In this document: in pieces, positions 2-61,826 of the stretch
Layout: each line of letters begins with the position of its first letter
How positions within the stretch are numbered: the stretch's first letter is position 1
DNA from: Escherichia phage UGKSEcP2
Direction: 5' to 3' (one strand)
Sequence record: OV876900
DNA length: 64,000 bases
Notes under the pieces: model-generated
Seen by the model: the letters and a program-made list of their open reading frames with translations, nothing else
The model's database searches: none
Told to the model about the DNA's origin: nothing
Made by a program: the position numbers and the translations under genes

Positions 2-904
2 GACTTCTTTGCTGACCGCGAATCTGTTGACGTTCAGTTGTTTATTGCGGGTTCTTGTGCCGGTGAATCTTTAGAAACAGCATCTACTGTCCAAAAACAC
101 GTCGTTTCAATTGGAGATGCTCGCCAAGATTGCTTAGTATTGTGCTCACCACCGCGTGAAACTGTTGTTGGAATTCCTGTAACTCGTGCTGTTGATAACT
201 TAGTCAATTGGAGAACCGCATCAGGTTCATACACTGATAATAACTTTAATATCAGTTCAACCTACGCAGCAATTGATGGTAACTACAAGTATCAGTATGA
301 CAAATATAATGATGTAAATCGTTGGGTTCCATTAGCAGCTGACATTGCTGGTTTATGCGCGAGAACTGATAACGTTTCTCAGACTTGGATGTCTCCAGCT
401 GGTTATAATCGTGGCCAGATTCTTAACGTTATTAAACTTGCTATTGAAACTCGCCAAGCTCAGCGCGACCGTTTATATCAAGAAGCTATCAACCCAGTAA
501 CTGGTACAGGTGGTGATGGTTACGTATTATATGGTGATAAAACAGCTACTTCTGTTCCTTCTCCATTTGATCGTATTAACGTTCGTCGTCTGTTTAATAT
601 GTTGAAAACGAATATCGGACGTAGTTCAAAATATCGTTTGTTCGAATTAAACAACGCGTTTACTCGTTCATCGTTCCGCACAGAAACTGCCCAATACTTA
701 CAGGGAATTAAAGCTCTCGGTGGAATTTATGAATATCGTGTAGTTTGCGATACAACAAATAACACTCCGTCAGTAATTGATAGAAATGAGTTTGTTGCAA
801 CATTCTACATTCAACCGGCTAGAAGCATTAACTACATTACCTTAAACTTCGTAGCAACTGCTACTGGTGCAGATTTCGATGAGTTAACTGGTCTTGCAGG
901 TTAA
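2..904 (+). CDS. 18: tail sheath protein gp18, C-terminal part (gene starts upstream of window)
   Basis: Open frame from window edge with no stop; track ORF 38..904 begins at a TTG inside this frame; followed by gp19 as in T4. Confidence 0.85.
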   Translation, partial: DFFADRESVDVQLFIAGSCAGESLETASTVQKHVVSIGDARQDCLVLCSPPRETVVGIPVTRAVDNLVNWRTASGSYTDNNFNISSTYAAIDGNYKYQYDKYNDVNRWVPLAADIAGLCARTDNVSQTWMSPAGYNRGQILNVIKLAIETRQAQRDRLYQEAINPVTGTGGDGYVLYGDKTATSVPSPFDRINVRRLFNMLKTNIGRSSKYRLFELNNAFTRSSFRTETAQYLQGIKALGGIYEYRVVCDTTNNTPSVIDRNEFVATFYIQPARSINYITLNFVATATGADFDELTGLAG

Positions 905-50601: not shown

Positions 50602-50609
50602 TATAAATA
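50602..50609 (+). promoter_or_regulatory. late promoter TATAAATA (gene 34)
   Basis: Exact motif ~35 nt upstream of ATG. Confidence 0.7.
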
Positions 50610-50643: not shown

Positions 50644-53600
50644 ATGGCCGAGATTAAAAGAAAGTTCAGAGCAGAAGATGGTCTGGACGCAGGTGGCGAT
50701 AAAATAATCAACGTAGCTTTAGCTGATCGTACCGTAGGAACTGACGGTGTTAACGTTGATTACTTAATTCAAGAAAACACAGTTCAACAATATGATCCAA
50801 CTCGTGGATATTTAAAAGATTTTGTAATCATTTATAATAATCGTTTTTGGGCAGCAACGGATAATATTCCAAAACCTGCTGGAAGTTTTAATAGAATTCG
50901 TTGGAAAGCATTACGTACTGATGCTGTATATACAACCGTATCATCTGGACCGTATCAATTAAAATCCGGAGAAGCAATTTCAGTAGATACATCAGTTGGT
51001 AATGACATTGAGTTTACTTTACCACCTTCTCCGCTCGATGGAGAAACAGTAATAATTCAAGATATCGGTGGAAAACCTGGTATAAATCAGGTTAAAATAA
51101 GTTCTTCAAATCAGAGCATTGTTAATTTTAGAGGTGAACAAGTACGTTCAGTTTTAATGACTCATCCAAAGTCACAGATGATATTCATTTTTAATAATCG
51201 TTTGTGGCAAATGTATGTTGCTGATTATAGCAGAGAAGCTGCAATTGTTACTCCATCGACTGCATATCAAGCACAATCTAATGATTTTATCGTGCGTAGA
51301 TTTACTTCCGCAGCGCCGATTAATATTAAACTTCCGAGATTTGCTAATCATGGCGATATTATTAATTTCGTTGATTTAGATAAATTAAATCCACTTTATC
51401 ATACAATTGTCACGACATATGATGAAACAACTTCAGTACAAGAAGTTGGAACTCATTCCATTGAAGGCCGTACATCGATTGACGGTTTCTTGATGTTTGA
51501 TGATAGTGAAAAATTATGGAGATTGTTTGACGGGGATAGTAAAGCACGTTTACGCATTATAACGACTAATTCAAACATTCGTCCAAATGAAGAAGTTATG
51601 GTATTTGGTGCGAATAATGGAACAACTCAAACAATTGAGCTTCAGCTTCCAACTAATATTTCTGTTGGTGATACTGTTAAAATTTCCATGAATTACATGA
51701 GAAAAGGACAAACAGTTAAAATCAAAGCTGCCGGTGAAGATAAAATTGCTTCTTCAGTTCAATTGCTGCAATTCCCAAAACGCTCAGAATATCCACCTGA
51801 AGCTGAATGGGTGACTGTTCAAGAATTAGTTTTTAACGGTGAAACTAATTATGTTCCAGTTTTACAGCTTGCTTATATTGAAGATTCTGACGGAAAATAC
51901 TGGGTTGTACAGCAAAACGTTCCAACTGTTGAAAGAGTCGATTCTTTAAATAATTCTACTAGAGCAAGATTAGGCGTAATTGCTTTAGCTACACAAGCCC
52001 AAGCTAACGTCGATTTAGAAAATTCTCCACAAAAAGAATTAGCAATTACTCCAGAAACATTAGCTAACCGTACTGCTACAGAAACTCGTAGAGGTATCGC
52101 AAGAATAGCAACTACTGCTCAAGTAAATCAGAACACTACATTCTCTTTTGCTGATGACCTTATCATCACTCCTAAAAAGCTGAATGAAAGAACTGCTACA
52201 GAAACTCGCAGAGGTGTTGCTGAAATTGCTACGCAACAGGAAACTAATGCAGGTACTGATGATACTACAATCATCACTCCTAAAAAGCTTCAAGCTCGAC
52301 AAGGTTCTGAATCATTATCTGGTATTGTAACCTTTGTATCTACCGCAGGAGCTACTCCAGCTTCTAGTCGTGAATTAAATGGTACAAATGTTTATAATAA
52401 AAATACTAATAATTTAGTTGTTTCGCCTAAAGCACTGGATCAGTATAAAGCTACTCCAACGCAACAAGGTGCAGTAATTTTAGCAGTTGAAAGTGAAGTA
52501 ATTGCTGGACAAAGCCAAGAAGGATGGGCAAATGCGGTTGTAACACCAGAAACGTTACATAAAAAGACATCAACTGATGGAAGAATTGGTTTAATTGAAA
52601 TTGCTACGCAAAGCGAAGTTAATACAGGAACTGATTATACTCGCGCAGTCACTCCTAAAACTTTAAATGACCGTAGAGCAACTGAAAGTTTAAGTGGTAT
52701 AGCTGAAATTGCTACGCAAGTTGAATTCGACGCAGGCGTCGACGATACTCGTATCTCTACACCATTAAAAATTAAAACTAGATTTAATAGTACTGATCGT
52801 ACTTCTGTTGTTGCTCTATCTGGATTAGTTGAATCAGGAACTCTCTGGGACCATTATACCCTTAATATTCTTGAAGCAAATGAGACACAACGTGGTACAC
52901 TTCGTGTAGCTACACAAGTTGAAGCTGCTGCAGGAAAATTAGATAATGTTTTAATAACTCCTAAAAAGCTTTTAGGTACTAAATCTACCGAATCGCAAGA
53001 AGGTGTTATTAAAGTTGCAACTCAGTCTGAAACCGTGACTGGAACGTCAGCAAATACTGCTGTATCTCCAAAAAATTTAAAATGGATTGTGCAGAGTGAA
53101 CCTACTTGGGCAGCCACTCCAGCCATAAGAGGATTTGTTAAAACTTCATCCGGTTCAATTACATTCGTTGGTAATGATACAGCTGGTTCTACGCAGGACT
53201 TAGAGCTATACGAGAAAAATAGTTATGCAGTATCACCATATGAATTAAACCGTGTATTAGCAAATTATTTGCCGTTAAAAGCAAAAGCTGCTGACGCAAA
53301 TTTATTAGATGGTCTAGATTCATCTCAGTTCATTCGTAGGGATATTGCCCAGACAGTTAATGGTTCACTAACCTTAACCAAACAAACGAACCTGAGTGCC
53401 CCTCTTGTATCATCTAGTACTGCTACGTTTGGTGGATCAGTTTCAGCAAATAGTACACTAACTATTTCTAATACTGGAACGGCAACTCAATTAATTTTTG
53501 AGAAAGGACCTCAAACTGGAACAAACCCGACTCAAACAATGACTGTAAAAGTGTGGGGAAATCAATTTAGTGGGGGGTCAGACACAACACGTTCTACTGT

Positions 53601-54513
53601 ATTTGAAGTTAGTGATGAAACTTCTAGTCATTTTTATTCTCAGCGTAATAAAGCTGGTAATATAACATTTAATATCAACGGTACAGTAACACCGATAAAT
53701 GTGAATGCTTCAGGAACATTGAATGCGAATGGCGTTGCAACATTTGGTAATTCAGTCACTGCAACTGGTGAAATTATTTCTCGAAGCGCAAATGCTTTCC
53801 GTGCTATTAATGGAAATTACGGTTTCATTATTCGTAATGACGGGTCAGTAACGAATTTTATGCTTACTGCATCAGGCAATCAAACTGGTGGATTTAATGG
53901 ATTGCGTCCATTGTCCATTAATAATCAATCTGGGCAGGTCACAATTGGTGAAAGCTTGATCATTGCTAAAGGTGCTACTATAAATTCAGGTGGTTTAACT
54001 GTTAACTCGAGAATTCGTTCTCAAGGTGTTAAAACATCTGATTTATATACCCGCGCGCCGACATCTGATACCGTAGGATTCTGGTCAATCGATATTAATG
54101 ATTCAGCCACTTATAACCAGTTCCCGGGTTATTTTAAAATGGTTGAAAAAACTAATGAAGTTACTGGACTTCCATACTTAGAACGTGGCGAAGAAGTTAA
54201 ATCTCCTGGTACATTGACTCAGTTTGGTAACACACTTGATTCACTTTACCAAGATTGGATTACTTATCCAACGACTCCAGAAGCACGTACCACTCGCTGG
54301 ACACGTACATGGCAAAAAACTAAAAACTCTTGGTCAAGTTTTGTTCAGGTATTTGATGGAGGTAACCCTCCTCAACCTTCGGATATAGGAGCAATTCCAT
54401 CTGATAATGGAATAATAGGTAATCTTACTATTCGTGATTTCTTACGAATTGGTAATGTTCGCATTATTCCTGACCCAGTGAATAAAACTGTTAAATTTGA
54501 GTGGATTGAATAA
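50644..54513 (+). CDS. 34: long tail fibre proximal subunit gp34
   Basis: 1289-aa ORF; late promoter upstream. Confidence 0.93.
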   Translation: MAEIKRKFRAEDGLDAGGDKIINVALADRTVGTDGVNVDYLIQENTVQQYDPTRGYLKDFVIIYNNRFWAATDNIPKPAGSFNRIRWKALRTDAVYTTVSSGPYQLKSGEAISVDTSVGNDIEFTLPPSPLDGETVIIQDIGGKPGINQVKISSSNQSIVNFRGEQVRSVLMTHPKSQMIFIFNNRLWQMYVADYSREAAIVTPSTAYQAQSNDFIVRRFTSAAPINIKLPRFANHGDIINFVDLDKLNPLYHTIVTTYDETTSVQEVGTHSIEGRTSIDGFLMFDDSEKLWRLFDGDSKARLRIITTNSNIRPNEEVMVFGANNGTTQTIELQLPTNISVGDTVKISMNYMRKGQTVKIKAAGEDKIASSVQLLQFPKRSEYPPEAEWVTVQELVFNGETNYVPVLQLAYIEDSDGKYWVVQQNVPTVERVDSLNNSTRARLGVIALATQAQANVDLENSPQKELAITPETLANRTATETRRGIARIATTAQVNQNTTFSFADDLIITPKKLNERTATETRRGVAEIATQQETNAGTDDTTIITPKKLQARQGSESLSGIVTFVSTAGATPASSRELNGTNVYNKNTNNLVVSPKALDQYKATPTQQGAVILAVESEVIAGQSQEGWANAVVTPETLHKKTSTDGRIGLIEIATQSEVNTGTDYTRAVTPKTLNDRRATESLSGIAEIATQVEFDAGVDDTRISTPLKIKTRFNSTDRTSVVALSGLVESGTLWDHYTLNILEANETQRGTLRVATQVEAAAGKLDNVLITPKKLLGTKSTESQEGVIKVATQSETVTGTSANTAVSPKNLKWIVQSEPTWAATPAIRGFVKTSSGSITFVGNDTAGSTQDLELYEKNSYAVSPYELNRVLANYLPLKAKAADANLLDGLDSSQFIRRDIAQTVNGSLTLTKQTNLSAPLVSSSTATFGGSVSANSTLTISNTGTATQLIFEKGPQTGTNPTQTMTVKVWGNQFSGGSDTTRSTVFEVSDETSSHFYSQRNKAGNITFNINGTVTPINVNASGTLNANGVATFGNSVTATGEIISRSANAFRAINGNYGFIIRNDGSVTNFMLTASGNQTGGFNGLRPLSINNQSGQVTIGESLIIAKGATINSGGLTVNSRIRSQGVKTSDLYTRAPTSDTVGFWSIDINDSATYNQFPGYFKMVEKTNEVTGLPYLERGEEVKSPGTLTQFGNTLDSLYQDWITYPTTPEARTTRWTRTWQKTKNSWSSFVQVFDGGNPPQPSDIGAIPSDNGIIGNLTIRDFLRIGNVRIIPDPVNKTVKFEWIE

Positions 54514-54521
54514 GAGGTATT

Positions 54522-55637
54522 ATGGAAAAATTTATGGCAGAGTTTGGACAAGGATATGTCCAAACGCCATTTTTATCGGAAAGCAATTCAGTAAGATATA
54601 AAATAAGCATAGCGGGCTCTTGCCCGCTTTCTACTGCAGGGCCATATGTTAAATTTCAGGATAATCCCGTTGGAAATCAAACATTTAGTGCAGGTCTTCA
54701 TTTAAGAGTTTTTGACCCTTCTACGGGAGCATTAGTTGATAGTAAGTCATATGCTTTTTCTGCTTCAAACAATACAACATCTGCCGCTTTTGTCAGTTTT
54801 ATGAATTCTTTGTCAAACAATAGACTTGTTGCTATATTAACTAGCGGAAAGGTTAATTTTCCTCCTGAAGTGGTATCTTGGTTAAGGGGAGCAGGAACTT
54901 CAGTTTTTCCATCAGATTCAGTATTGTCAAGATTTGACGTATCATATGCTGCTTTTTACACTTCTTCTAAAAGAGCTATTGCATTAGAGCATGTTAAACT
55001 AAGTAATAGAAAAAGCACAGATGATTATCAAACTATTTTAGATGTTGTATTTGATAGTTTAGAAGACGTCGGAGCTACGGGATTTCCTAAAAGAACATAT
55101 GAAAGTGTCGAGCAATTTATGTCAGCGGTTGGTGGAACTAACAACGAAATTGCGCGATTGCCAACTTCAGCTGCTATAAGTAAACTATCTGATTATAATT
55201 TAATTCCTGGTGATGTTCTTTATCTTAAAGCACAGTTATATGCTGATGCTGATTTACTTGATCTTGGAACTACAAATATATCTATCCGTTTTTATAATGC
55301 ATCAAATGGATATATTTCTTCAACACAGGCTGAGTTTACTGGGCAAGCTGGGTCATGGGAATTAAAGGAAGATTATGTAGTTGTTCCTGAAAATGCAGTC
55401 GGATTTACTATATATGCGCAGAGAACTGCTCAAGCTGGTCAAGGCGGACTGAGGAATTTAAGCTTTTCTGAAGTATCAAGAAATGGCGGCATTTCAAAAC
55501 CTGCCGAATTTGGCGTCAACGGTATTCGCGTTAATTATGTCTGTGAATCGGCTTCACCTCCAGATATAATGGTACTTCCTACACAAGCCTCTTCTAAAAC
55601 TGGCAAAGTGTTTGGGCAAGAATTTAGAGAAGTTTAA
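54522..55637 (+). CDS. 35: long tail fibre hinge protein gp35
   Basis: 371-aa ORF. Confidence 0.85.
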   Translation: MEKFMAEFGQGYVQTPFLSESNSVRYKISIAGSCPLSTAGPYVKFQDNPVGNQTFSAGLHLRVFDPSTGALVDSKSYAFSASNNTTSAAFVSFMNSLSNNRLVAILTSGKVNFPPEVVSWLRGAGTSVFPSDSVLSRFDVSYAAFYTSSKRAIALEHVKLSNRKSTDDYQTILDVVFDSLEDVGATGFPKRTYESVEQFMSAVGGTNNEIARLPTSAAISKLSDYNLIPGDVLYLKAQLYADADLLDLGTTNISIRFYNASNGYISSTQAEFTGQAGSWELKEDYVVVPENAVGFTIYAQRTAQAGQGGLRNLSFSEVSRNGGISKPAEFGVNGIRVNYVCESASPPDIMVLPTQASSKTGKVFGQEFREV

Positions 55638-55668: not shown

Positions 55669-55676
55669 TATAAATA
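55669..55676 (+). promoter_or_regulatory. late promoter TATAAATA (gene 36)
   Basis: Exact motif immediately after terminator hairpin. Confidence 0.7.
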
Positions 55677-55699: not shown

Positions 55700-56350
55700 A
55701 TGGCTGATTTAAAAGTAGGTTCAACTGTGGGTGGATCTGTCATTTGGCATCAAGGAAATTTTCCATTGAATTCAGCCGGTGACGATGTACTCTACAAATC
55801 ATTTAAAATATATTCAGAATATAATAAACCACAGGCAGCTGATAACGATTTCGTTTCTAAAGCTAATGGTGGTACTTATACCGGTCCAATTACTATTAAT
55901 TACGGGGTAAATAGTTATCTTCAATTAAGTAATAATGAAACCCCCATTCGAATTCGTTCTGGTGGCGGTACCGGCAATACTCTTGTAGTTGGCGGCTCTT
56001 CTGGCGGTATTAGTTTTAGACCTGCAGGTAGTGAAATCACTATTGGACAAATTACTATTACGCCAGAAGGTTTGACAACATTTACCAGGGCTGTAACGGC
56101 TCCATCTGTAACTGTTACATCTACTCCTTCAGCAGCATCTGATGTTACTCGTAAAGATTATGTCGATGGAGCAATAAATACTGTTACGGCAAATGCGAAT
56201 TCTAGAGTTTTGCGTAAAGGTGACACCATGACAGGTAATTTAACAGCGCCAAACTTTTTCTCGCAGAATCCTGCATCTCAACCCTCGCATGTTCCACGAT
56301 TTGACCAAATCGTGATTAAGGATTCTGTTCAAGATTTCGGCTATTATTAA
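55700..56350 (+). CDS. 36: long tail fibre distal connector gp36
   Basis: 216-aa ORF; terminator and late promoter upstream. Confidence 0.85.
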
Positions 56351-56358
56351 GAGGACTT

Positions 56359-59307
56359 ATGGCTACTTTAAAACAAATACAATTTAAAAGAAGCAAAACT
56401 GCAGGTCAACGTCCTGCTGCTTCAGCATTAGCCGAAGGTGAATTGGCTATTAATTTAAAAGATAAAACAATTTTCACAAAAGATGACTCAGGCAGTGTTA
56501 TAGAATTAGGTTTAAAATATGGAGGAACAATTGATGGTTCTTTAACTGTTAATGGAAATATAATTGGAAATTTAACAGGTAACGCTGCAACTGCAACGAA
56601 ATTGCAAACACCTAGGAAAATTAACGGTATATCTTTTGATGGGTCAAAGGACATTACCTTAACTCCATCTGACATAAATGTCAATAGCACAACATTTATA
56701 AAAAATAACGGCGAATTACCTGTTGACGCTAATTTAGATGAGTATGGACCCACTGAAGAGTATCTTGGTGTTTGGTCGAAATCTACTTCAACAAATGCGC
56801 AACCTGCAAATAAATTCCCAGAAGAAAATGCCGTAGGTGTATTAGAAGTATTTGTGGCCGGTCAATTTGCTGGTACTCAGAGATATACTGTAAGATCTGG
56901 TAACGTTTATATTCGTTCCTTATCTGCTAAATGGAATGGTGTAGATGGTCCGTGGGGTGTGTGGCGTAATGTTCAAGCGTCAACTCGTCCACTTTCACAA
57001 ACGATTGACCTTGATAGCTTGGGAGAATTAGAACATTGTGGCTTATGGCGAAACAGTTCAAGCGCAATCGCATCATTTGATCGCCATTATCCAGAAGAAG
57101 GATCAGCCGCACAAGGATTTTTAGAAATATTTGAAGGTGGTTTATACACGAGAACGCAGCGTTATACTACCCGCATGGGTATGGTTTATACTCGTTGTCT
57201 CGCTGCTGCATGGGATGCTAGTGCACCTAAGTGGGAGGAATGGAAGCAGGTTGGTCATGGCACACCAGCGACTTTCTATGACGGAGACCTGAATGATTTT
57301 AAAACTCCTGGGTTATATAATATTTTAGGTACTGATGCCGTTATTAACTGTCCTACAGGTGAAGGTTTACCAGCCGTTATTGTTGGTTTGCTGGAAGTTA
57401 AACAGCGTGCTTCTGGTGGTGCTATTTTCCAACGTTTCACTACCGCAGGAACGGGTGCAACTACTCGCGATCGTATTTTTGAGCGTGCATATACTGGTAG
57501 TGCGTGGGGTGCATGGAACGAAGTATATACATCTTATTCTCTGCCAATTACTTTGGGTATGGGTGGCATTAAAGCTCAATTAGCGGAGTTAGATTGGCAA
57601 ACCTTTGATTTTGTCCCTGGTAGTATGTTTAGCGTTCCTTTGAATAAAATAAAGAACATGCCAGCAAATATGAATTGGGGGACGATTGATGGAAACTTGG
57701 TTATGTTTTCTGTCGGTCCTAGCGAACATACTAGCACAGGGCGTACTGTTCAGGTTTGGCGTGGTACTGTATCCCAGACAAACTACCGCTATTTTGTCGT
57801 TCGTGTATTCGGTAATTCAGGAAATAGAACTTGCACAGTTCGTCGTGTTGTTCTTGAAGACGGATCACATACTTGGACTGCTCAACAAAACTTTAGAGGA
57901 TTGCTGAATATCACTGCTGCTGTTAATCTTGGCGCTAATCAGAAAATTTCACTTGCTCCAGGAGCATATATTCAAGCTCCTGCTAGCGGTTCTGGTTCTA
58001 ATACTTACGCAAATCAGAATACTACCATTGCGCCATTATATCAGGCCATTGACGATTCAAATAAAAACCAGTTTGCGCCAATTGTTAAACAGAAAAACAC
58101 TGTAACAAATATTACTATGGCTTCTGGTATGGATATTGCTAGTTCAGAATATCGTATCGTTGCTCAGGGTGATTTATCCGCTACTGGAACTACAGCCGCT
58201 GAATTAGCTACATGGCGTTTCTTGCCGTCGGGCCGATTCATGTCACAAAGTCGAGTTTATGCTGGAGCAGCATTCCTTAATACCGATGGTAATATTGCTG
58301 GTTCTATCTGGAAGAAATATAATAATGCAACCAATTTAGACGCTGCTTTGAATACTCGCGTGGGTAAAGGCGGTGATATTATGACCGGACGCTTGACAAT
58401 TCAAAGCCCAGGTGATTCTATTGTATTATCAGCACCTGCTAGTAATTCTTTGCGTATTCGTGGTGACGTAGACGGGACTGGTAACTGGTATATTGGTAAG
58501 GGTGGTGATGATAATGGATTAGCGTTCTATAGTTATGCTACTAATGCTGGTGTATACATTACAAATGCAGGGGATATCGCGCTAAGTCCAAAAGGCGTCG
58601 AAATGGCTCATGTTAATAACATTCGATTATATGTTCATGGTGAACGTTGGACCGCTAGTCAACCAGGTGATTGGGGCAACCAATGGCGAGTAGAAGCGCC
58701 AATATTCGTCGATCATGGTTATGTTGGACCAGATAGCTATTATCCAATTATTAAAGGAAGAAGTGTAGTCACCAATCAAGGGTTTGTAACTTCCGTCGAT
58801 CTTGGTATTCGTCGTATCCCTAATAATTGGGGACAAGCAATTATTCGTGTTGGATCTGCGGAGGCTTCTCCTGATGCTGGTCATCCTAACGCGATATTCG
58901 AGTTCCACTATGATGGGTTCTTTTATGCACCAGGAAATGGAAGTTTTAATGATGTGTATATTCGTTCCGATGGTCGTCTTAAGATTAATAAAAAAGAGCT
59001 AGAAAACGGAGCGGTTGAAAAAGTTTGCCGACTGAAAGTTTATACTTACGATAAAGTTAAGTCTATTAAAGACCGTAGTGTTATTAAACATGAAGTTGGT
59101 ATTATTGCGCAGGATCTTGAAAAGGAATTGCCGGAAGCTGTATCTAAAGTTGAAGTTGATGGATCTGATGTTCTGACAATTTCTAACTCTGCTGTGAATG
59201 CTCTTTTAATTAAGGCCATTCAGGAAATGAGCGAAGAAATTAAAGAATTGAAAACACCTTTCTTCACTAAAATTGCTCGCAAAATTAGTAATTATTTTAA
59301 ATTCTAA
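56359..59307 (+). CDS. 37: long tail fibre distal subunit gp37 with C-terminal intramolecular-chaperone-like domain
   Basis: 982-aa ORF; N-terminus shares motifs with gp36; C-terminal ~113 aa begin [13 protein letters not shown]. Confidence 0.9.
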
Positions 59308-59311
59308 CAGC

Positions 59312-59331
59312 AGGGGGCTTTGCCCCCTTTT
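59312..59331 (+). terminator. stem-loop between genes 37 and 38
   Basis: GGGGGC-TTT-GCCCCC followed by TTTT, immediately before the gene 38 RBS. Confidence 0.55.
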
Positions 59332-59341
59332 GGAGAAAATT

Positions 59342-60124
59342 ATGGCAGTAGTTGGTGTTCCTGGTTGGATTGGAAGTTCATCCGTAAATGAAACAGGACA
59401 ACGATGGATGAGTCAAGCGGCTGGTCAATTAAGATTGGGTGTTCCTTGCTGGATGAGTCAATTTGCAGGTCGCTCAAGAGAAATTATTCACACGCTTGGA
59501 GCAGACCATAACTTCAATGGTCAATGGTTCCGAGATAGATGTTTTGAGGCAGGTAGTGCACCTATAGTGTTTAATATCACTGGAGATTTAGTATCATATT
59601 CTAAAGATGTTCCTTTATTCTTCATGTACGGAGATACACCGAATGAATATGTTCAGTTGAACATACATGGTGTAACGATGTATGGCCGTGGCGGGAATGG
59701 CGGTAGCAATAGTCCTGGCTCAGCTGGGGGTCATTGTATTCAAAATGATATTGGTGGGAGACTAAGAATTAATAATGGCGGAGCTATTGCTGGCGGCGGT
59801 GGCGGCGGTGGCGGCGGGTATTATTCTCCTTTTTCACAAATGAGATTGACCTTTGGCGGTGGCGGCGGTCGTCCGTTTGGCGCACCGGGCGGATCTATTG
59901 ATATGCAATCAGGAGCAACTGCTGGTACTATTTCTGCGCCAGGCGCAGGGTCTGTGAACGGTATCTACAACGGCGGGTCTGGTGGTGAAGTTGGCTCCGC
60001 AGGAGGTAGATGTAATATTCGTGGTCAAGGATATGAATACGATGGCGGAGCTGCTGGTTATGCCGTCATAGGGTCTACACCGACATGGCAAAACGTTGGA
60101 GCAATATATGGTCCAAGAGTATAA
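59342..60124 (+). CDS. 38: gp38 receptor-binding adhesin with glycine-rich motifs (T2 type)
   Basis: 260 aa from ATG at 59342 (track ORF starts at upstream TTG); poly-Gly runs [11 protein letters not shown] and [10 protein letters not shown]. Confidence 0.8.
59792..59879 (+). repeat. GGY codon repeats encoding poly-glycine runs in gene 38
   Basis: GGCGGCGGTGGCGGCGGTGGCGGCGGG and a second GGCGGTGGCGGCGGT block. Confidence 0.8.
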
Positions 60125-60154
60125 TTTGAATAAATATCCTTAAAAGGAGGGTCT

Positions 60155-60811
60155 ATGGCAGCACCTAGAATATCACTTTCGCCCTCTGGTATTCTGTTTG
60201 GTGTTCTAGATCGCTTGTTCAAAGATAACGCTACCGGGAAAGTTCTTGCTTCCCGGGTAGCTGTCGTAATTCTTTTGTTTATAATGGCGATTGTTTGGTA
60301 TAGGGGAGATAGTTTCTTTGAGTACTATAAGCAATCAAAGTATGAAACATACAGTGAAATTATTGAAAAGGAAAGAAATGCACGCTTTGAATCTGTCGCC
60401 CTGGAACAACTCCAGATAGTTCATATATCATCTGAGGCAGACTTTAGTGCGGTGTATTCTTTCCGCCCTAAAAACTTAAACTATTTTGTTGATATTATAG
60501 CATATGAAGGAAAATTACCTTCAACAATAAGTGAAAAATCACTTGGAGGATATCCTGTTGATAAAACTATGGATGAATATGCAGTTCATTTAAATGGACG
60601 TCATTATTATTCAAACTCAAAATTTGCTTTTTTACCAACTAAAAAGCCTACTCCCGAAATAAATTACATGTACAGTTGTCCATATTTTAATTTGGATAAT
60701 ATCTATGCTGGAACAATAACCATGTACTGGTATAGAAATGATCATATAAGTAATGACCGCCTTGAATCAATATGTGCTCAGGCGGCCAGAATATTAGGAA
60801 GGGCTAAATAA
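60155..60811 (+). CDS. t: holin T
   Basis: 218-aa ORF, single N-terminal TM segment; GGAGG RBS. Confidence 0.93.
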   Translation: MAAPRISLSPSGILFGVLDRLFKDNATGKVLASRVAVVILLFIMAIVWYRGDSFFEYYKQSKYETYSEIIEKERNARFESVALEQLQIVHISSEADFSAVYSFRPKNLNYFVDIIAYEGKLPSTISEKSLGGYPVDKTMDEYAVHLNGRHYYSNSKFAFLPTKKPTPEINYMYSCPYFNLDNIYAGTITMYWYRNDHISNDRLESICAQAARILGRAK

Positions 60812-61084
60812 TTATTTGTTCGTATACATCTCTAGATATCGATATACACCCTCAAAACCCTCGTTGAATTCGTCGATGAGGGTTTTCTTATCTTCTTGAG
60901 TTAATTCAGAAACAATTTTACGGAATGAATTCTGATTTAACTTTCTACCTTCATGCGTTACTCCAATCTCATTCAGAAATGCAATAAAATTAGCGCGATT
61001 CTCAACAATATCTTCTCTGGAAAATTTAATCAAAATAGACGCAACAGTAATAATTTCACGAACTGTATCAATATTTTTATTCAT
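60812..61084 (-). CDS. asiA: AsiA anti-sigma-70 factor
   Basis: 90-aa ORF recognised as T4 AsiA. Confidence 0.93.
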   Translation of the reverse strand: MNKNIDTVREIITVASILIKFSREDIVENRANFIAFLNEIGVTHEGRKLNQNSFRKIVSELTQEDKKTLIDEFNEGFEGVYRYLEMYTNK

Positions 61085-61601: not shown

Positions 61602-61826
61602 TTAAAATTGTGTTTTGCGACTAAATTGTTCATAGTGCTGAATTACCTCTCTCAAACACTTGCATGTGAATGAAAACTTTTTAGCTACACCACATTCAAA
61701 TATATGTTCTCTTAAATCACGTGTGTCAGTATATCCCATCTCAACAATAAAATGTCTTATTAGATTTTTATCTTTATCATTGAGAGAATTAAAATAATCG
61801 GATTTTGAATTAATTTCCCTGGCCAA
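61602..61826 (-). CDS. hypothetical protein
   Basis: 74-aa ORF. Confidence 0.5.
   Translation of the reverse strand: MAREINSKSDYFNSLNDKDKNLIRHFIVEMGYTDTRDLREHIFECGVAKKFSFTCKCLREVIQHYEQFSRKTQF

Follow-up and report, generated by a model that had tools for sequence, protein, structure and literature searches.

The gp37–gp38 segment of Escherichia phage UGKSEcP2 is the distal tip module of a Tequatrovirus long tail fibre, essentially that of Escherichia phage UGKSEcP1. Our results support a reading, to which we assign a probability of about 0.93, in which a self-cleaving gp37 with a C-terminal Peptidase_S74-type chaperone is followed by a gp38 adhesin bearing T6/RB5-type loops, with Tsx as its likely receptor. 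The module lies in a window of 64,000 nucleotides (sequence record OV876900), the whole stretch of DNA analysed, and its features are collected in Table 1. In the mechanism that we propose, gp37 would be made as a 982-aa precursor whose last 113 residues drive trimerisation and folding of the fibre. Within the trimer, S870, activated by K875, would attack the R869–S870 bond and release the chaperone, exposing a flat trimeric tip that ends in DVYIR. Using Trp 9, 22 and 37 of its N-terminal attachment domain, one copy of gp38 would dock onto this tip, giving a predicted 3:1 stoichiometry. Its variable loops would be displayed towards the cell by the polyglycine-II sandwich, and a T6/RB5-type loop set would most likely engage the nucleoside channel Tsx as primary receptor. 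Nothing that we found in the sequence contradicts the pairing of a gp37 chaperone with a gp38 adhesin. Earlier publications already cover the module, how it is processed and built, and the logic of its receptor choice, and the analysis adds no new biology. Its value is practical: the tip segment decides which bacteria are adsorbed, and can be read for host-range prediction or swapped to re-target a therapeutic T-even phage, and a Tsx call made from sequence is useful for cocktail design.

Table 1. Features of the fibre tip module and its surroundings (window coordinates)
Feature	Position (nt)	Strand	Basis
T4-type late promoter motif TATAAATA, 5' of gene 36	55669..55676	+	motif
Gene 37, long tail fibre distal subunit, 982-aa precursor	56359..59307	+	ORF, Pfam, so annotated in UGKSEcP1
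DVYIR, aa 865-869, predicted last residues of mature gp37	58951..58965	+	VYIR conservation; role from PMC7917993 and 6F45
Predicted autocleavage site R869^S870	58963..58968	+	aligned with S16 site S^SDRRIKK
Intramolecular chaperone/autoprotease domain, aa 870-982, 113 aa	58966..59304	+	Pfam PF13884, S16 gp37, profile matches, Foldseek
Intercistronic hairpin A-GGGGGC-TTT-GCCCCC-T, then T-run	59312..59328	+	-17.9 kcal/mol, z -2.8
Gene 38 ribosome-binding site GGAG	59332..59335	+	read from sequence
Gene 38, tail fibre tip adhesin, 260 aa	59342..60124	+	Pfam GP38 and Gp38_N, PDB 9v85 and 6f45_D, UGKSEcP1 identity
gp38 N-terminal attachment domain, aa 1-42, Trp 9/22/37	59342..59467	+	Gp38_N alignment; Trp match S16
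gp38 receptor-binding region, aa 115-239, alternating GRM/HVS	59684..60058	+	alignment to published scheme
gp38 glycine-rich motifs: GRM1 aa 115-121, GRM2 151-159, GRM3 172-180, GRM4 211-218, GRM5 235-239			
gp38 variable segments: HVS1 aa 122-150, HVS2 160-171, HVS3 181-210, HVS4 219-234			
Gene t (holin), downstream neighbour, synteny context	60155..60811	+	Pfam Phage_holin_T 1.8e-116

UGKSEcP1 (OV877085.1), a Tequatrovirus, differs from UGKSEcP2 by a few nucleotides only and is for practical purposes the same phage. Across positions 58500-60200 the two share 99.8% nucleotide identity; gene 37 is 99.4% identical and the gp38 proteins are 100% identical. The matching genes are UGKSECP1_00222 and UGKSECP1_00221, and the order 34-35-36-37-38-t-asiA is common to both phages. 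Gene 38 sits immediately 3' of a gp37 gene ending in the chaperone domain, 34 nt beyond its stop codon, and is followed by the holin gene. The 36-37-38 late transcript likely starts at the T4-type late promoter motif that precedes gene 36, and no second motif of this type was found between there and gp38. Upstream of about nucleotide 58648, the gp37 shaft is mosaic and diverged from many relatives.

By its profile matches, the 260-aa protein is a full-length member of the T2-type Gp38 adhesin family, the identity that a sequence-only reading of this DNA had proposed for an open reading frame ending, as it does, at 60124. Pfam GP38 (PF05268) aligns over its entire length (profile positions 1-218 of 218) with 240 bits and an E value of 3e-71, against a cut-off of 25 bits, and Gp38_N (PF21721) does likewise (1-40 of 40; 70 bits, E 1.3e-19). 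Among solved structures, the PP01 gp38 RBD (PDB 9v85) is matched at E 3.7e-80 and S16 gp38 (6f45_D) at E 2.5e-49 over residues 5-257. The homologous S16 and PP01 proteins are built from three domains, namely a three-Trp attachment domain, a beta-helix and a polyglycine-II sandwich (PMC7917993), but they bind OmpC and their loops differ from those of UGKSEcP2. W9, W22 and W37 all align to Trp residues of S16 gp38; within the alignment of relatives W9 and W22 are invariant, and W37 is replaced only in CM8, by Leu. The role of the attachment domain as N-terminal "prongs" is given in PMC7917993, which cites Dunne 2018 for it. That gp38 sits at the fibre tip of the virion and binds the receptor has been demonstrated for relatives in published work, and is predicted for UGKSEcP2.

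The glycine pattern is equally typical. Residues 114-260 are 33% glycine, against 11.5% for residues 1-113 and 8.4% for the fibre and holin proteins nearby, and gp38 contains 12 runs of at least two glycines, including G9 (151-159) and G5 (172-176). Poly-Gly motifs split by variable segments had been noticed from the letters; alignment with related adhesins resolves them into five glycine-rich motifs (GRMs) and four variable segments (HVSs) in the C-terminal half, with approximate limits set here by alignment to the scheme of PMC3157838 and PMC12032242. Between-phage variation is concentrated between the GRMs.

The variable segments also bear on the choice of receptor. Identity of gp38 is 98.8% to RB5, 97% to CM8, 94% to FL15, 93% to T6 and 53% to T2, so that of 260 residues 3 are changed relative to RB5, 8 relative to CM8 and 18 relative to T6. 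HVS1 and HVS2 are identical to those of RB5, CM8 and fPS-65, and HVS3 is one residue off RB5. The alignment thus places the loop set in the T6/RB5 type, not the T2 type, and T6, RB5 and CM8 share with UGKSEcP2 the whole architecture, the DVYIR^SD.RLK junction and essentially the same four HVSs. RB5, CM8, FL15 and T6 are Tsx phages (PMC3157838, PMC12032242, bioRxiv 10.64898/2026.04.02.716166). Because the variable segments resemble those of the Tsx binders RB5, CM8 and T6, with T2 at only 53%, Tsx is most likely the primary receptor of UGKSEcP2. We rejected a T2-like receptor (FadL/OmpF), since T2 gp38 is 53% identical and its HVSs are unrelated. The label "T2-type" given to the module in the sequence-only reading therefore holds for the architecture and fails for the variable loops, which are of the T6 (Tsx) type as opposed to those of T2 itself (FadL/OmpF). 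The further proposal that this segment is the host-range determinant agrees with experiments in close relatives, both the RB5/RB32 chimeras (PMC3157838) and a CM8 gp38 swap (bioRxiv 10.64898/2026.04.02.716166).

It is unlikely, in our judgement, that the same architecture serves a receptor other than Tsx, such as OmpA, the LPS core or another porin, through private HVS substitutions. The idea draws on N210, S213 and Y231, three residues by which the variable region of gp38 departs from RB5. Of the seven T6-like adhesins compared, only this one has Y231, in HVS4, the residue being Ser in RB5, T6, CM8, fPS-65, FL15 and PST. Small changes can matter in this family: PST gains OmpA and Yersinia recognition through few changes in HVS2/3 (PMC3157838), and the single HVS substitution Q206L switches RB68 from OmpF to OmpW (bioRxiv 10.64898/2026.04.02.716166). 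In addition, for fPS-65, whose gp38 is 97.3% identical to that of UGKSEcP2, a requirement for LPS inner-core heptose was reported in Yersinia, a host without Tsx (PMC7917993, PMC3157838). However, the heptose dependence of relatives has been ascribed to gp12, the short tail fibre, with CM8 scored as Tsx/HepI (bioRxiv 10.64898/2026.04.02.716166), receptor use is predicted by adhesin phylogeny (PMC12032242), and the near-identity of HVS1 to HVS3 to those of RB5 likewise favours Tsx. There is a slim chance that N210, S213 and above all Y231 shift or broaden the Tsx loop variants, or a second receptor, that gp38 recognises; if so, UGKSEcP2 and the few phages nearly identical to it would have a host range unlike that of canonical T6-like phages.

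With Tsx as the most likely receptor, the other half of the proposed tip is the gp37 tail, in which a domain of about 113 residues, its beginning resembling that of auto-cleaving chaperones, had been suspected. Residue 870 is encoded from nucleotide 58966, exactly the start proposed in the sequence-only reading, and 113 residues run from it to the stop codon, placing the domain (aa 870-982) at the extreme C-terminus of the 982-aa protein. Aligned with domains of this type, the tail is, on sequence grounds, a Peptidase_S74-type intramolecular chaperone. Pfam PF13884 matches residues 870-928 over profile positions 1-57 of 58 with 41.8 bits (E 1.4e-10; cut-off 22 bits), and both this similarity and that of gp38 to the GP38 profile are, by their scores, far beyond chance. 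The chaperone of S16 gp37 (6f45_A) is matched at E 1.4e-5 with the single sequence and 2.6e-7 with a profile, which also matches the 8jov tail fibre and the MyRF ICA domain 7dc3. A homologue search with the 135-aa gp37 tail returned 19 proteins, most of them fragments and none a full-length gp37, and the family was not widened by it.

The catalytic signature is intact. In S870-D-G-R-L-K875, the Ser stands first in the domain as the predicted nucleophile (codon 58966-58968) and the Lys, the predicted general base (codon 58981-58983), lies at +5. This dyad has precedent, since its spacing equals that of the proven Ser/Lys dyads S911/K916 of endoNF and S587/K592 of MyRF (PMC8326128). Both residues are invariant in T2, T6, CM8, FL15, fPS-65 and every database homologue covering those positions, and VYIR is invariant in the same phages and in the database homologues covering that stretch. 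The domain of T6, CM8 and FL15 is 94-96% identical to that of UGKSEcP2. T2 gp37, at 1341 aa compared with 982 aa here, also ends in a Peptidase_S74 domain (E 3.3e-15) followed by a Gp38 adhesin, and keeps VYIRSD.RLK, although its chaperone is 46% identical and is without the last 13 residues. S16 (6F45) has a homologous chaperone, likewise of 113 aa, which PMC7917993 describes as the autocleaved last 113 aa of gp37; in the S16 model, the residues equivalent to DVYIR form the flat trimeric tip where gp38 docks (PMC7917993, structure 6F45), which suggests a similar docking geometry here. Upstream of its last five residues, S16 gp37 is unrelated to that of UGKSEcP2. DVYIR^SDGRLKI was predicted as the cleavage site in fPS phages in 2021 (PMC7917993), and processing of T2 and T6 gp37 has been known since 1986 (Drexler 1986, as cited in PMC3157838). 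By homology, gp37 of UGKSEcP2 would cleave itself in the same way.

More distant members of the family are the endoNF/K1F endosialidase (3GW6), GA-1 (3GUD), T5 pb1 (4UW8) and the MyRF ICA domain (7DC3), all under MEROPS S74. They share the Pfam family, the Ser-Lys dyad at +5, placement at the C-terminus, behind a trimeric fibre, and, as far as a low-confidence model can be read, the order of secondary-structure elements, but the four structures are only 10-19% identical in fold alignments, and the UGKSEcP2 domain is preceded by a T-even fibre tip, not by a tailspike or a transcription factor. That model, an AF2 monomer of the last 135 aa of gp37 built from a 16-sequence alignment, reached a pLDDT of only 49.5, a low value that is probably due to an obligate intertwined trimer and to the shallow alignment; its elements run H-E-E-H-E-E-long H, where the fold of the family has small beta elements ahead of a long C-terminal helix that makes a trimeric coiled coil. 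Searched with this model (pLDDT 49.5), Foldseek returned chaperone domains at all of ranks 1-12 (7dc3, 3gw6, 3gud, 4uw8), with 7dc3 at E 2e-5 but TM scores of only 0.3-0.4, and the fold evidence for the chaperone domain is weak taken alone.

The low confidence of the model would leave room for the view that the last 113 residues are a degenerate relic left uncleaved, or are cut off by a protease of the host or the phage and not by themselves, which we consider very improbable. Even in diverged homologues, T2 at 46% identity among them, neither the dyad nor the VYIRSD.RLK junction varies, which argues for selection on catalysis. Moreover, if it stayed uncleaved, the domain would sit over the face on which gp38 docks in S16 (PMC7917993), and processing of T2 gp37 is an established fact (PMC3157838).

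A self-cleaving gp37 capped by an adhesin differs from the arrangement in T4, as had been anticipated: the Pfam S74 domain is present in T2 and T6 gp37 and absent from T4 gp37. The T4 genes occupy the same genomic position and likewise make the distal half-fibre, but T4 gp38, a chaperone of 183 aa, is unrelated and does not form part of the virion, and T4 gp37 binds the receptor itself (PMC12032242, PMC12892980). We rejected as extremely unlikely a T4-like role for the 260-aa protein, as a non-structural assembly chaperone serving a gp37 whose tip binds the receptor, which its slot between genes 37 and t, the label "distal long tail fiber assembly catalyst" that some records still give T6 gp38, and the statement that T2-type gp38 also acts as a chaperone before staying attached (PMC7917993) might suggest, but against which stand the lack of sequence similarity with T4 gp38 (the best BLASTP match spans 12 residues at E = 2), the failure of T4 gp38 to match Pfam GP38, the full-length adhesin-family match with two solved adhesin structures, the change of receptor upon gp38 swaps in near-identical phages (PMC3157838, bioRxiv 10.64898/2026.04.02.716166), and a gp37 that has neither collar nor needle tip of the T4 type and bears a removable S74 domain at its end.

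Finally, the boundary between the two genes contains features of its own. The open reading frame listing opens the gp38 frame at an in-frame TTG at 59273, upstream of the ATG and overlapping gp37. We take the ATG at 59342 as the real start, because GGAG precedes it by 6 nt and the whole Gp38_N profile aligns to residues 1-42 counted from that Met. In the intergenic space, a terminator scan did not call the hairpin, which is followed by only four T, and for this reason we do not claim it as a terminator. T2, T6, CM8 and FL15 retain the hairpin in different letters, and its role is probably mRNA-stabilising or attenuating.

The last 113 residues of gp37, the distal subunit of the long tail fiber, begin with the 13-residue stretch at residue 870 (nt 58966) exactly where the sequence-only reading had placed it, and the approximate length of 113 residues that it gave is likewise exact. 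Its view that this tail is chaperone-like was borne out when the comparison was run, with a Pfam match to Peptidase_S74 ("chaperone of endosialidase") over residues 870-928 (E 1.4e-10; 41.8 bits, with the cut-off at 22). The gp37 proteins of T2 and T6 carry the same domain, whereas that of T4 lacks it. A PDB comparison pairs the tail with the chaperone portion of S16 gp37 in its solved construct (6f45_A, E 1.4e-5), and a small profile built from five sequences (the window, CM8, T6, FL15 and T2) additionally retrieves the 8jov tail fiber and the MyRF ICA domain 7dc3 (E 7e-4). An AlphaFold monomer model of the tail is of low confidence (pLDDT 49.5), and the 12 best Foldseek matches to this model in the PDB are all intramolecular chaperone domains, including MyRF 7dc3 (E 2e-5), endoNF 3gw6, GA-1 3gud and T5 4uw8, a ranking that weakly favors a chaperone fold.

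The catalytic dyad of the Peptidase_S74 family pairs a Ser with the Lys at +5, as in S911/K916 of endoNF and S587/K592 of MyRF, in which each alanine mutant loses cleavage (PMC8326128). The counterpart in the window is S870/K875, which is invariant in T2, T6, CM8, FL15, fPS-65 and the database homologues that cover these positions. After the coiled-coil helix, T6-like domains including the window's have an extra basic, aromatic tail of 13 residues (59266-59304, gp37 aa 970-982), which is absent from T2 and several database homologues.

Genes of the long tail fiber region
Feature	Position	Strand	Remark
gp34	50644-54513	+	T-even long tail fiber operon, end of window
gp35	54522-55637	+	long tail fiber operon
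gp36	55700-56350	+	long tail fiber operon
gp37, 982 aa	56359-59307	+	long tail fiber operon
260-aa protein (gp38), long tail fiber operon	ATG 59342, stop codon ends 60124	+
holin t	60155-60811	+	long tail fiber operon, after the 260-aa protein gene

The 260-aa protein that follows gp37 had been read as a glycine-rich adhesin, with coordinates and a description that proved exact. Residues 114-260 are 33% Gly, compared with 8.4% in neighboring proteins, and the protein has 12 runs of at least two Gly, G9 and G5 among them. In Pfam, it hits the complete GP38 profile (E 3e-71) and also Gp38_N (E 1.3e-19); among solved adhesins, it matches the PP01 gp38 RBD (9v85, E 3.7e-80) and, over residues 5-257, S16 gp38 (6f45_D, E 2.5e-49). 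W9, W22 and W37 align with the three N-terminal tryptophans by which S16 gp38 docks into the tip of gp37 (PMC7917993). The alternative named beforehand, a non-structural chaperone only, is rejected, since these matches are to adhesins and similarity to the T4 gp38 chaperone is undetectable (best E = 2). An upstream start at TTG 59273, from the ORF listing, is an artefact: the ATG has a GGAG 6 nt upstream, and alignment to the Gp38_N profile starts at the Met that it encodes.

Drawing on the sequence and on established work on T2, T6, S16 and PP01, we infer that gp37 would trimerize with the aid of its own C-terminal domain, after which S870/K875 would cut R869^S870 and the 113-aa domain would depart. 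The exposed fiber tip would then end in DVYIR, on which a single gp38 would dock, its polyglycine-II sandwich presenting the variable loops. By homology, this sequence is likely in this phage, and the residues needed for all four steps are present.

All of these elements are already published: gp37 processing followed by gp38 capping in T2/T6 (Drexler 1986, as cited in PMC3157838), the glycine-rich motifs and hypervariable segments (HVSs) of gp38 adhesins (PMC3157838; PMC12032242), the S16 structure, whose gp37 autocleaves its last 113 residues (PMC7917993), and an identical DVYIR^SDGRLKI site, explicitly predicted for fPS phages (PMC7917993). Thus, the sequence-only reading was correct and well read, and the module is a known one in an already sequenced phage. 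Over 58500-60200, the window shares 99.8% identity with Escherichia phage UGKSEcP1 (OV877085.1, Tequatrovirus), in which the gp37 and gp38 counterparts are labeled "long tail fiber protein distal subunit" and "tail fiber protein; host specificity", the latter protein being 100% identical.

The module had also been called T2-type, which holds for its architecture but not for its specificity, which is T6-type: gp38 is only 53% identical to that of T2 and differs from that of RB5 at 3 of 260 positions (N210, S213, Y231), with 7 differences from fPS-65, 8 from CM8, 16 from FL15 and 18 from T6. Tsx is the receptor of RB5, RB14 and T6 (PMC3157838) and of FL15 (PMC12032242); RB-TnSeq gave Tsx/HepI for CM8, whose gp38, when swapped, switches the receptor (bioRxiv 10.64898/2026.04.02.716166). 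Given this near-identity to the gp38 of Tsx-using RB5, T6, CM8 and FL15, Tsx is the best prediction from sequence comparison, with the caveats that one HVS change can switch receptor (RB68 Q206L; bioRxiv 10.64898/2026.04.02.716166), that Y231 is private to the window's small clade among the compared sequences and that fPS-65 was classed as dependent on LPS heptose in Yersinia, a host without Tsx (PMC7917993; PMC3157838).

The mosaic gp37 has a joint close to nt 58648; most megablast matches to 58500-60200 begin at query position 149-155. Around 58948-58965, protein homologues of the tail part completely directly upstream of FNDVYIR. From these match starts and this divergence, the chaperone domain and gp38 appear to move together as one cassette whose joints are very tight. 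Elsewhere, aa 58-112 of the hinge protein gp35 match Pfam ILEI (Interleukin-like EMT inducer, PF15711; E 8e-8, above cut-off), a domain common to animal FAM3-type proteins. Downstream of t come asiA, arn and motA on the opposite strand, and the arn-to-arn.2 interval (61602-61826) is a small variable spot adjoining the anti-restriction gene, with ORFs of 74 aa in the window and UGKSEcP1, about 40 aa in CM8 and fPS-65, and 104 aa in T6.

Exact T4 late-promoter motifs (TATAAATA; 17 matches in the window against 8.1 expected) lie at 50602-50609, about 35 nt ahead of the gp34 start codon, and at 55669-55676, about 24 nt ahead of that of gp36; none precedes gp37, gp38 or t. Because only 34 and 36 are so preceded, this suggests that 36-37-38, and perhaps also t, are co-transcribed. 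In the 34-nt gap between 37 and 38, a stable GC-rich hairpin (A-GGGGGC-TTT-GCCCCC-T; RNA fold energy -17.9 kcal/mol, z -2.8) and a short T-run after it occupy 59312-59331. Hairpins with other stem and loop letters occupy this place in CM8, fPS-65, T6, FL15 and T2 (TTCG loop in T2), and in the fPS-65 record a "terminator" is marked at this position, on the opposite strand; possible roles of the hairpin are mRNA stabilization or attenuation of transcription between the two genes. Immediately beyond t, at 60854-60886 and within the convergently transcribed asiA, the + strand carries a 14-bp stem-loop and then a T-rich run; fPS-65 has a terminator annotated at the equivalent place.
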